From positions 1 through 64,000 of the IMG/VR virus record IMGVR_UViG_3300045988_162434: a DNA stretch of 64,000 nt, one strand, 5' to 3'. Numbering within the stretch: the stretch's first letter is position 1; each line of letters starts with the position of its first letter. The DNA comes from a virus. A model generated the notes under the pieces. The model was not told the DNA's origin. It was given only the letters and a program-made list of their open reading frames with translations, and ran no database searches. Below are positions 52,140-52,890 of the stretch, in pieces. The translations under genes and the position numbers were made by a program.

Positions 52140-52169
52140 TTGACAAAGTGCGGTTACCTGTGGTATAAT
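52140..52169 (+). promoter_or_regulatory. plus-strand promoter TTGACA-N18-TGgTATAAT
   Basis: TTGACA at 52140-45 and TATAAT at 52164-69. The transcript starts TTTTCGGGCAGCAGACCAAGTGTTCGAT and runs antisense to the intergenic leader of minus-strand genes. Confidence 0.55.
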
Positions 52170-52288
52170 TTTTCGGGCAGCAGACCAAGTGTTCGATGGT
52201 TGCGGAAGTCGCTTTAGTGCAGTGAACTGTGACGCTTTAACGCGCTAAAGTGTCAAGCTTATTAAAAAAGAGAAGACTTTTATCTTCT

Positions 52289-52528
52289 CTATAATGTCAA
52301 GAAATAAGCATTTAATACAATAAGTGCAATCTGTGTTACATAACTATTTACATGCGCTTTTGCTTTTACATTCAACACAAGCCAAACACTGCAATTTACA
52401 ATGCCAAGCCAAGGCGCCCACGCGAAACCGCACACCACAAACAAGACATTTAAAATTGTAATAATTGTAGTCAAGTCCGCAACCTCAAAAACATACTTCT
52501 TTTCTGTAATACTGAAAAACTCTTTCAT
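52289..52528 (-). CDS. small membrane protein
   Basis: 79 aa with two TM helices. Confidence 0.3.
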   Translation of the reverse strand: MKEFFSITEKKYVFEVADLTTIITILNVLFVVCGFAWAPWLGIVNCSVWLVLNVKAKAHVNSYVTQIALIVLNAYFLTL

Positions 52529-52790
52529 TCCTTTATTCCTTTCTAGTTTGTTGCTCTATTGTTATCCCAATCTGCAAGCAGTAATTCAAGTGCGCTTGTG
52601 TCTTTATCCTCGATAGCTTTCTCAATTTTTTCAATCAAATTCATGTCCTCTTGTTTCCTTTCCTTGTGTTCCTTACAAGTATTATAATACTACTTTATTC
52701 AATGGATTGATACAATTTGCTTGCGTTTTTTGTTAAATCCTTTACCTGTTTTAGGAAAGATATTTTTTTTATTTTTTTATACTTTTCCTC

Positions 52791-52820
52791 TTGACAAGTT
52801 GGCTAGTAGTGTGCTATAAT
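52791..52820 (+). promoter_or_regulatory. plus-strand promoter TTGACA-N18-TGcTATAAT
   Basis: TTGACA at 52791-96 and TATAAT at 52815-20. Confidence 0.55.
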
Positions 52821-52826
52821 AGTTCG

Positions 52827-52890
52827 GACACCAGACCATTTGTTCGATTCAGAACGAACAAAAAAAAGAAGGCTTTCGCCTTCTTTCTAC
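52827..52890 (+). ncRNA. candidate about 64-nt plus-strand small RNA
   Basis: Bounded by promoter 52791-52820 and terminator hairpin GAAGGC-tttc-GCCTTC plus TTTCT at 52868-52890. Its 5' segment AGTTCGGACACCAGACCATTTGTTCGAT is homologous to the 5' end of the transcript starting near 52176 (TTTTCGGGCAGCAGACCAAGTGTTCGAT). It is antisense to the leader of gene 52887-53075. Confidence 0.45.

Follow-up and report, generated by a model that had tools for sequence, protein, structure and literature searches.

Conserved antisense promoters at early operon boundaries of a large gut phage and their relatives in uncultivated phages: candidate counter-transcription cassettes and an associated palindromic motif

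Introduction

Lambda OOP, P22 sar and the coliphage 186 pR/pL region provide the classical phage cis-antisense RNAs, which involve shared terminators or convergent promoters, and interference between promoters that converge is an established mode of regulation. Here we describe a 64,000-nt stretch of viral DNA (positions 1 to 64,000 of IMG/VR record IMGVR_UViG_3300045988_162434; hereafter the window, W) in which plus-strand promoters of a kind that we call class II lie within an array of minus-strand early genes, and we centre on two of them, promoters D (52140) and E (52791), and on a 20-nt palindromic motif located in the same inter-operon spacers. As in the classical systems, a short non-coding RNA (~60-120 nt) would arise from a promoter opposing the main transcription. 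Those systems, however, are single-copy switches with one target each (cII, ant, the lysis-lysogeny choice), whereas class II comes in 6-7 copies per genome, placed at operon boundaries, the RNAs of D and E overlap terminators only, and the conserved part is the promoter and not the RNA. We propose, with a probability of roughly 0.4, that class II cassettes work in cis, as modules that insulate operon boundaries or drive counter-transcription there, and that they occlude those sense promoters which they meet face-to-face.

In T4-type phages, promoter-early stem-loop (PeSL) cassettes have been described (Arbiol et al. 2010, PMC2839356; Comeau et al. 2014, PMC4122927). PeSLs are short promoter/terminator composites, present in many copies between small early genes of a plastic region, conserved above the flanking genes and situated at indel or replacement junctions between close relatives, and the class II cassettes resemble them in all these respects. 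The differences are that the phage group and the host polymerase consensus are other ones, that the cassette is larger (~250 bp) and contains an antisense promoter with a class signature of its own, and that it carries an upstream inverted repeat and a GGGAT box, sometimes together with a palindromic motif or a face-to-face promoter pair; the PeSL is reported to consist of a terminator and a sense early promoter, whereas class II is antisense. The transcriptomes of the Pseudomonas phages LUZ7 and LIT1 revealed antisense start sites and bidirectional terminators between convergent units, for which a silencing or timing role was proposed (Putzeys et al. 2022, PMC9163698). Unlike class II, these are long middle transcripts antisense to late genes (PMC9163698), and their starts do not constitute a dedicated, sequence-conserved class of orphan promoters.

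W evidently derives from a large Firmicute-type gut phage. Its portal protein shares 40% identity with that of the gut phage Phass-1 and 32% with those of EF1-like Enterococcus phages, hits from which we infer that the phage is not of the T4 type, and a megablast search of 51000-55000 against the INPHARED phages gave no match. Between 42 and 56 kb, small minus-strand genes form a leftward array in which ~40 genes have each their own near-perfect sigma-A promoter (spacer 17 nt), followed by a AAGTATAGAAA-type leader and a ribosome-binding site, and by all appearances this is a typical host-takeover or early region. Throughout, promoters and terminators are called as consensus matches only, and L-numbered loci (L001, L087, etc.) are stretches from public collections, fragments of up to ~20 kb.

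Promoters D and E and their predicted transcripts

An earlier note on this DNA, made by a model from the letters alone, had placed two plus-strand promoters at 52140 and 52791 and described them as opposing early genes and as starting transcripts with a common 5' segment. Our analysis bears this out. Both promoters (52140-52169 and 52791-52820) are TTGACA-18-TATAAT, a 12/12 match to the sigma-A consensus with a TG element, and both lie on the plus strand inside the minus-strand gene array. In D, the -35 element (52140-52145) is followed by the 18-nt spacer, TGTGGTATAAT with the -10 element at 52164-52169, TTCGG at 52172-52176 and a predicted start at a G around 52175-52177; in E, the corresponding parts are TGTGCTATAAT and TTCGG at 52823-52827. 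The segment common to the two transcripts, CAGACCANNTGTTCGAT, occurs exactly at 52181 and 52832, well above chance, and TATAATNNTTCGGRC occurs exactly at 49550, 52164 and 52815. We consider 52140 and 52791 very probably to be real, strong plus-strand promoters giving short non-coding RNAs.

Each of the two is accompanied by a divergent sense promoter. In the region upstream of D (52005..52139), which the divergent pair has in common, lie the minus-strand sense promoter (TTGACT-17-TATTAT, 52071-52043), an inverted repeat (ATTGCACAA at 52089 and TTTGCACAA at 52124-52132 on the minus strand) flanking a TTTTGGGAT box, and A/T-rich sequence reminiscent of an UP element. Such an inverted repeat of ATTGCACAA around a TT(C)GGGAT box is present upstream of three class II copies, and exact ATTGCACAA is found in W only there; this sequence fits the relaxed DnaA-box consensus at 7/9 positions. 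Divergent from E is a minus-strand sense promoter and leader unit (52664..52743) that has no -35 element but TATTATAATACTTGTAAGGAA and a conserved upstream CGCAAGCAAATTGTATCAAT, with paralogues at 47710-47789 and 52023-52061 (window repeat families D16 and D17). A conserved CGCAAGNAAATTGTATCAAT precedes 2/3 copies of this -35-less unit, and such units may represent a different temporal class, for instance middle promoters. An extended -10 TG also tends to be missing from sense promoters that are partnered with an antisense one.

The earlier note went on to propose that the second transcript ends at a clean plus-strand terminator and that both RNAs are antisense to early-gene leaders; the first proposal needs correction and the second did not stand. 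The hairpin after E (52863..52888) passed the terminator scan in the minus orientation only, as the intrinsic terminator of the 62-aa gene 53075-52887; it consists of an A-tract, a hairpin and a T-tract and is possibly bidirectional, but its plus-strand tail, TTTCTACA, is poor in T, so on the plus strand it would be at best a weaker bidirectional terminator. Likewise, the hairpin at 52269..52290, the intrinsic terminator of the 79-aa gene 52528-52289, qualified in the minus orientation only and has a T-poor plus-strand tail; read in its weaker plus orientation, it probably marks where the D RNA ends. The predicted D and E RNAs cover only the terminator and stop codon of the upstream convergent gene, and both promoters diverge from the next downstream minus-strand promoter. 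Since D and E are back-to-back with a sense promoter and head-on to a terminator, their RNAs would oppose 3' ends and terminators, not leaders. What persists of the earlier reading as a whole is the two probable strong short-RNA promoters and the motif as a candidate protein site.

The predicted D RNA (52175..52296, ~120 nt) would begin with a module GGGCAGCAGACCAAGUGUUCGAU and continue with an inner GCGG/UCGC hairpin, a hairpin formed by the motif (52230-52255) and the bidirectional terminator. On reading its sequence, no start codon preceded by a ribosome-binding site was found. Its fold is weak (z = -1.7 against shuffled sequence), and the alignment contains one compensatory pair in the inner hairpin and one in the motif stem, with several other pairs broken. 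The predicted E RNA (52826..52890, ~64 nt) would open with a GGACACCAGACCA segment, after which an 8-bp hairpin, UUUGUUCG/CGAACAAA (52839-52862), precedes the terminator hairpin (52865-52886); it folds well (z = -4.05), and its structure is invariant across six relatives, without covariation. The two transcripts had been called homologous, which holds for their sequence and fails for their structure, as the common segment folds differently in D and E. Moreover, the likeness reaches ~180 bp upstream, past the promoter and into the divergent sense promoter unit, so the homology is that of a duplicated cassette. Its copies vary by apparent gene conversion (AG or TT after CAGACCA, in combinations differing among genomes), and the 5' module of D and E is confined to W and five close relatives (six contigs).

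A ACCAGACC motif is common to the D RNA, the E RNA and the minus-strand RNA of promoter 42732, and no complementary target for the RNAs was found elsewhere in W. Rfam 15 returned nothing meaningful in 49000-56500 at E-values up to 10, and in 15 other class II loci it matched only tRNAs and one group I intron, none of them a class II RNA. Mimicry of a tRNA or T-arm by the GUUCGAU segment was rejected, as ARAGORN and Rfam found nothing there, and so was a tRNA-like minihelix downstream of promoter 50981, whose fold is no better than chance.

The class II family in the window

A search of W for TTGACA-N15-TGNTATAAT with at most one mismatch gave 6 hits against 0.12 expected. The family has at least six members, five with the 18-nt spacer (A at 44035, B at 47849, C at 49526, D at 52140 and E at 52791) and a 17-nt variant at 45400, and the seventh antisense consensus promoter, P4 (54077..54105, spacer 17 nt), is related to them. 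All seven are on the plus strand of the minus-strand array. Apart from 45400 and 54077, the spacer of 18 nt distinguishes them from the sense promoters, which have 17 nt and another initial transcribed sequence. In the six class II copies, TTCGG is followed by GC-rich sequence without an open reading frame (ORF), whereas at 54077 a TTCGG-containing segment appears only further downstream; there, a ~110-nt non-coding region holding ATTTCGGGGTCAAATTTGAC is kept in relatives, and the predicted P4 RNA folds no better than shuffled sequence.

Only at 44035, 45400, 47849 and 49526 would a class II RNA overlap the leader at a sense 5' end, over ~20 nt; each of these four faces a minus-strand consensus promoter across a GC-rich hairpin, the predicted starts being ~20 nt apart. 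In element A (44035..44126) the class II promoter faces the sense promoter 44126 (minus strand) across a GC hairpin, CGGCGAGC..GCTCGCCG, with predicted starts ~20 nt apart and a compensatory hairpin change in the orthologue of L113. The element at 45400..45494 has the same face-to-face arrangement, with a -10 of TATACT and a hairpin GGCGCGCC..GGCGCGCC; in element B (47849..47940) the hairpin loop, CAACCGCAA, recurs in the distant locus L121. Element C (49461..49617) begins with three perfect DnaA boxes (TTATCCACA at 49461, 49473 and 49499 on the minus strand, two direct and one inverted, within 49461-49507), which replace the TTGCACAA inverted repeat of the sister cassettes, and continues with the face-to-face pair 49526 (plus) and 49617 (minus). 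A small sense-strand peptide (MHKF...) upstream of class II promoters was discarded as a candidate: neither its frame nor its start codon is conserved, and in C the repeat arms are DnaA boxes.

GC-rich hairpins were seen at 44070-44093, 45436-45461, 47883-47908, 49560-49585 and, on the minus strand, 42680-42702, and they coincide with the predicted 5' ends of both RNAs of the face-to-face promoters. Their sequences vary among copies and orthologues with pairing kept (element A against L113, element C against L001). Judged by comparison among the copies alone, their differing sequences argue against mimicry of CRISPR repeats (RNA anti-CRISPR).

Class II promoters in other phages

The core TTGACAA-N12-TGTG(G/C)TATAAT-NN-TTCGG (a 37-nt pattern) is present exactly in 37 IMG/VR stretches, which correspond to ~30 large phage contigs, and the cassette carriers appear as a broad group of uncultivated large phages of gut and rumen. 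Eight contigs of metagenome-assembled genomes (MAGs) also contain it, and the six with enough upstream sequence display the phage-type cassette; the genome scan found no match in any isolate genome. Phage-type cassettes in MAG contigs and no isolate hit indicate that class II is apparently not a host promoter, and mimicry of a host promoter was discarded on the same grounds. A string search of the literature with the motif and the promoter matched only unrelated primers.

Over 33 non-redundant sites the consensus consists of A/T tracts followed by cTC-TTGACAA-N12-TGTGGTATAAT-aTTTCGG. A divergent sense promoter lies at most 220 nt upstream in 28 of the 33 sites, and a terminator-like hairpin ends 21-226 nt downstream in 26, of which 13 are oriented for the opposite strand only and 7 are bidirectional; nine sites have a face-to-face partner, with 16-32 nt between the start sites. 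Where flanking sequence sufficed (30 sites), the nearest ORF with a ribosome-binding site was located on either side: downstream it is encoded by the opposite strand at 23 sites, by the same strand at one and is absent at 6, and upstream the figures are 16, one and 13. As called here, class II promoters are orphan and consistently antisense, back-to-back with a sense promoter and head-on to the previous terminator.

The promoter is near-invariant between lineages and the transcribed parts are wholly different. Minimal class II RNAs would be a hairpin and a U-tract of 22-35 nt (L087, L104, L139). A LexA (Cheo)-like box, CGAAC-N4-GTTCG, which also forms a terminator-like hairpin, is found at +5 to +18 in L087, L097, L111 and L139; D and E lack it at the promoter and at the start. 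The Thg1-like protein encoded in W recovered 80 loci, of which only the closest two, L001 (86% identity) and L002 (80%), share the elements; with 78 of the 80 having neither class II promoters nor the motif, synteny with Thg1 is uninformative.

Conservation and mosaic junctions

In five relatives, the promoters and RNA 5' ends show a diversity of 0.01-0.09, against 0.10-0.52 in the flanks. The D cassette is kept from -170 to +78 between unrelated, mosaic sequence on both sides: across five genomes its diversity is 0.011 in the promoter, 0.04 in the upstream part (-170 to -37) and 0.08 downstream (0 to +78), and it rises to 0.34-0.52 directly outside, the right edge being the end of the motif. 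In L002, gene 53169-53453 is absent through a deletion between repeated sense-promoter cassettes. Promoter/terminator composites recur between the small early genes (window repeat families D1-D8 and D15-D18), and the terminators are paired with class II promoters. Being repeated and highly conserved, the cassettes would also serve as recombination junctions for gene shuffling.

The palindromic motif

The thrice-repeated motif of the earlier note was recovered as GCTTTAACGCRCTAAAGYG (19 nt) at 52234, 53570 and 54019, with 0, 1 and 0 mismatches; W contains 5 hits against 0.05 expected, and 15 half-sites against 3.9 expected. Its internal dyad symmetry was equally evident, the consensus being a 16-bp palindrome, CTTTAAC-GC-GTTAAAG, made of 8-nt half-sites (CTTTAAYR). 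The sequence that follows was also reported correctly for W (TCAAG, TCAAG and TTTGCC), but GTCAAG is not conserved, close relatives having GTTAAG or ATTATG. A minus-strand promoter using this GTCAAG as its -35 was considered and rejected, for it has no -10 element and its sequence is not conserved.

Site 1 (52234..52252, GCTTTAACGCGCTAAAGTG, with an extra half-site CTTTAGTGC at 52212) marks the right edge of the conserved D cassette. Site 2 (53555..53590) has four contiguous 8-nt half-sites, CTTTAGTG, CTTTAACA, CTTTAACG and CACTAAAG, and lies 55 bp upstream of the -35 of sense promoter 53515. The adjoining terminator hairpin (53602..53627) has its better T-tract on the plus strand (GTTTTTACTT) and may end a third antisense RNA, for which no strong promoter was seen. 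Site 3 (54019..54037) is situated between the divergent promoters 53951 (minus) and 54077 (plus). The sites of W have 1-4 half-sites each. Motif sites share inter-operon spacers with class II promoters, directly behind a terminator and usually 55-85 bp upstream of a sense -35, and among W, L001 and L002 a 17-nt core is invariant while the flanks have changed.

Elsewhere, GCTTTAACGCRCTAAAG is present exactly in 23 IMG/VR stretches (~20 contigs), often within arrays of direct and inverted half-sites (L121, 2456-2830; L134, 3100-4300; L129, 590-720; also L136 and L120). The array of L121 has at least 8 units at a 23-bp period, extends to ~16 degenerate units and gives way to an A/T-rich stretch; that of L134 repeats a module of ~130 bp, in which a promoter-like GCATATAAAGAGTG comes before each unit and a GC hairpin after it. 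The suggestion that the motif is a candidate protein-binding site gains strength from these palindromic arrays in ~20 other phage contigs. Known iteron and operator arrays include the lambda ori iterons, the contiguous 7-8-bp repeats bound by the ribbon-helix-helix (RHH) proteins omega and MetJ, and the KorB operator, TTTAGCSGCTAAA. The motif resembles them in its contiguous or regularly spaced dyad units (23 bp in L121) and in its direct and inverted half-sites upstream of promoters, and the half-site TTTAGC/TTTAAC recalls that of KorB. It differs in that W has only three small sites and that the half-site spacing is not that of KorB, and no initiator or partition gene was found adjoining the motif arrays.

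Direct repeats spaced by 8 nt, and the position of site 3 outside the nearest plus-strand transcript, argue for protein recognition of DNA. An operator or iteron fits the motif better than an RNA hairpin does, and the site is most likely bound by a DNA-binding protein, from the phage or from its host, that acts as a dimer or multimer. That the motif acts instead as a hairpin or repeat in the antisense transcripts, e.g. as the site of an RNA-binding protein, is rather unlikely. RNAalifold draws a stem of 10 bp around site 1 within the D RNA. One of its pairs, G-C in W, reads A-U in five relatives, and L149 has A-U in place of a G-U; the apparent G-U pairs are, however, accounted for by the R/Y degeneracy of the half-site, and the outer arms have an A-C mismatch in L099. 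Motif-like sequence is also part of the class II RNAs of the distant phages L088 and L096, and a plus-oriented terminator follows site 2. The direct half-site repeats of site 2 and L134, at 8-nt spacing, cannot pair with each other as hairpins, and site 3 is upstream of the transcript in which it would have to act. Like the stem of the D RNA and the terminator after site 2, the search for a binder counts against a DNA operator: the proteins of W gave no match to helix-turn-helix (HTH), RHH or ParB families except a weak HTH_32 hit at 45853-46224. A co-occurrence analysis aimed at the binder returned nothing beyond shared early genes, among them a HAD-like nucleotidase, and was uninformative.

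Possible roles of the class II cassettes

Our proposal of counter-transcription starts from the anatomy of the cassettes, their orientation, their lack of coding potential, and their conservation, wide distribution and mosaic junctions. In the model, an A/T-rich upstream region, a GGGAT box and mostly a ATTGCACAA inverted repeat or DnaA boxes would precede TC-TTGACAA, the 18-nt spacer, TGTGGTATAAT and TTTCGG, with transcription starting at the G. Host RNA polymerase would load very efficiently on such a promoter and make a short RNA of 20-120 nt, first a GC-rich 5' hairpin, stopping at or near the shared terminator. Neighbouring early units would be insulated through collision with, or occlusion of, read-through polymerase; in face-to-face copies the opposing sense promoter would be excluded, and the divergent sense promoter may be helped via local negative supercoiling or polymerase recruitment. 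The RNAs themselves would be by-products or would at most act, in cis, as antisense partners of leader and read-through transcripts, and the 20-nt motif would be a separate protein-binding module of the same inter-operon spacers.

Several observations speak against this model. Insulation of an operon would be achieved more simply by a stronger terminator, and promoter activity, RNA ends and the insulating effect are all deduced from the sequence. The first 78 nt of D and the first 36 nt of E (0 to +78, 0 to +36) are more conserved than the neighbouring coding sequence, which, together with the compensatory pairs of D, is as compatible with a functional RNA as with DNA sites. In subfamily iv (seven sequences) the changes within stems are one-sided and, read on the class II strand, preserve pairing through G-U; these changes, and GC hairpins that still pair despite unlike sequences, show some constraint at the level of the RNA or the hairpin.

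Such constraint would be explained if the short RNAs were the product, either as decoys, mimics or regulators in trans (e.g. in anti-defence or host takeover) or as cis-antisense triggers of RNase III at convergent mRNA 3' ends, the conserved promoter then being a standard expression cassette for a lineage-specific RNA cargo. We consider this unlikely. A constant promoter whose cargo varies recalls accessory or anti-defence loci, yet several family members would express merely a hairpin and a U-tract. RNA 5' parts are conserved above their flanks, and pairing-preserving substitutions are found on the class II strand both in subfamily iv and in D, but several D pairs are broken in relatives, and the common segment adopts different folds in D and E. 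The fold of E, although far better than that of shuffled sequence, is accompanied by neither covariation nor an Rfam match. And while the ACCAGACC motif unites the D, E and promoter-42732 RNAs, the search for a complementary target elsewhere in W found none, and the D/E module is restricted to the six close contigs.

Very unlikely, in our judgement, is a role as replication-origin or primer modules, in which a strong early promoter would transcribe across iterons (the motif) with DnaA boxes nearby. At the lambda origin with its oop RNA, and at T4 oriE, transcription activates the origin or primes DNA synthesis. The L121 arrays, with 8-16 dyad units at a 23-bp period before an A/T-rich stretch, are reminiscent of lambda-type iterons, but no initiator gene was identified beside the arrays. 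The predicted D RNA runs through motif site 1 and three perfect DnaA boxes lie just upstream of promoter C; however, seven similar cassettes are packed within 10 kb with the motif in the transcript of one only, half-sites are found downstream at only 2 of the 33 class II sites (W having its 1-4 half-sites per site), and the transcribed regions are GC-rich and not easily unwound.

Improbable to much the same degree is that the cassettes have no function beyond strong early promoters and terminators, in a purely PeSL-like manner, their repeats persisting via homologous recombination and gene shuffling and their antisense orientation being incidental: mosaic breakpoints at cassette edges and the gene conversion between D and E agree with it, but chance orientation would not yield 23 opposite against 1 same among 30 non-redundant sites of diverse phages, and the 18-nt spacer, the TTTCGG signature and the conserved upstream GGGAT box would be left unexplained.

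Should the class II cassettes indeed work by counter-transcription, early expression in a large group of uncultivated gut and rumen phages would depend also on strong antisense promoters at every operon boundary and on palindromic repeats, offering a concrete and easily testable viral case of built-in transcriptional insulation or promoter occlusion. The shuffling of small early genes among such phages would be explained, ready-made strong promoter and insulator parts for Firmicutes would become available, and a caution would follow that 'sRNA candidates' in phage intergenic regions may be by-products of promoter architecture. A wider claim is rather doubtful: that a broad clade of large Firmicute phages possesses, in class II, a dedicated regulatory device hitherto undescribed, either as counter-promoters partitioning the host-takeover region into insulated or timed units or as a source of tiny 5'-GG-hairpin RNAs acting as anti-host decoys, with the 16-bp palindromic iteron and host DnaA- and LexA-type boxes coupling early transcription to host physiology.

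Other features of the window

Two consensus promoters of the early region (43790-43864 and 46310-46383, both on the minus strand) have behind them nothing but a mini-ORF (...PKRK*, e.g. MRSPPKRK), after which the next promoter comes directly. The Thg1-like protein used above (54655-55545, minus strand) belongs to the tRNA-His guanylyltransferase family (Pfam PF04446, E = 1e-30) and has homologues in at least 190 IMG/VR phage stretches. The gene at 56373-57458 (plus strand) opens a rightward operon and is driven by a consensus sigma-A promoter at 56316; its product matches PHROG 5767, 'sigma factor' (E = 4e-46), and has an HNH/zinc-ribbon-like C-terminal region.

W encodes at least 21 tRNA genes. 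ARAGORN calls one at 23226-23296 (minus strand, Rfam tRNA score 61 bits) with the anticodon TTA, which would decode the stop UAA, a possible suppressor tRNA, and an Rfam tRNA match at 45650-45786 measures 137 nt and may hence hold an insertion or intron. A full-length ROOL RNA (Rfam RF03087, 275 bits) lies within the tRNA cluster at 24785-25385 (minus strand). Close to this tRNA/ROOL region, and on the minus strand, are genes for an 830-aa protein with a major-vault-protein shoulder and repeat domains (1331-3823), a DUF2828/DUF7788 protein (5133-6593) and a NADAR-domain protein (7639-8133), the latter two near the vault-type gene; together they make up a ribonucleoprotein-like set that is unusual in a phage.

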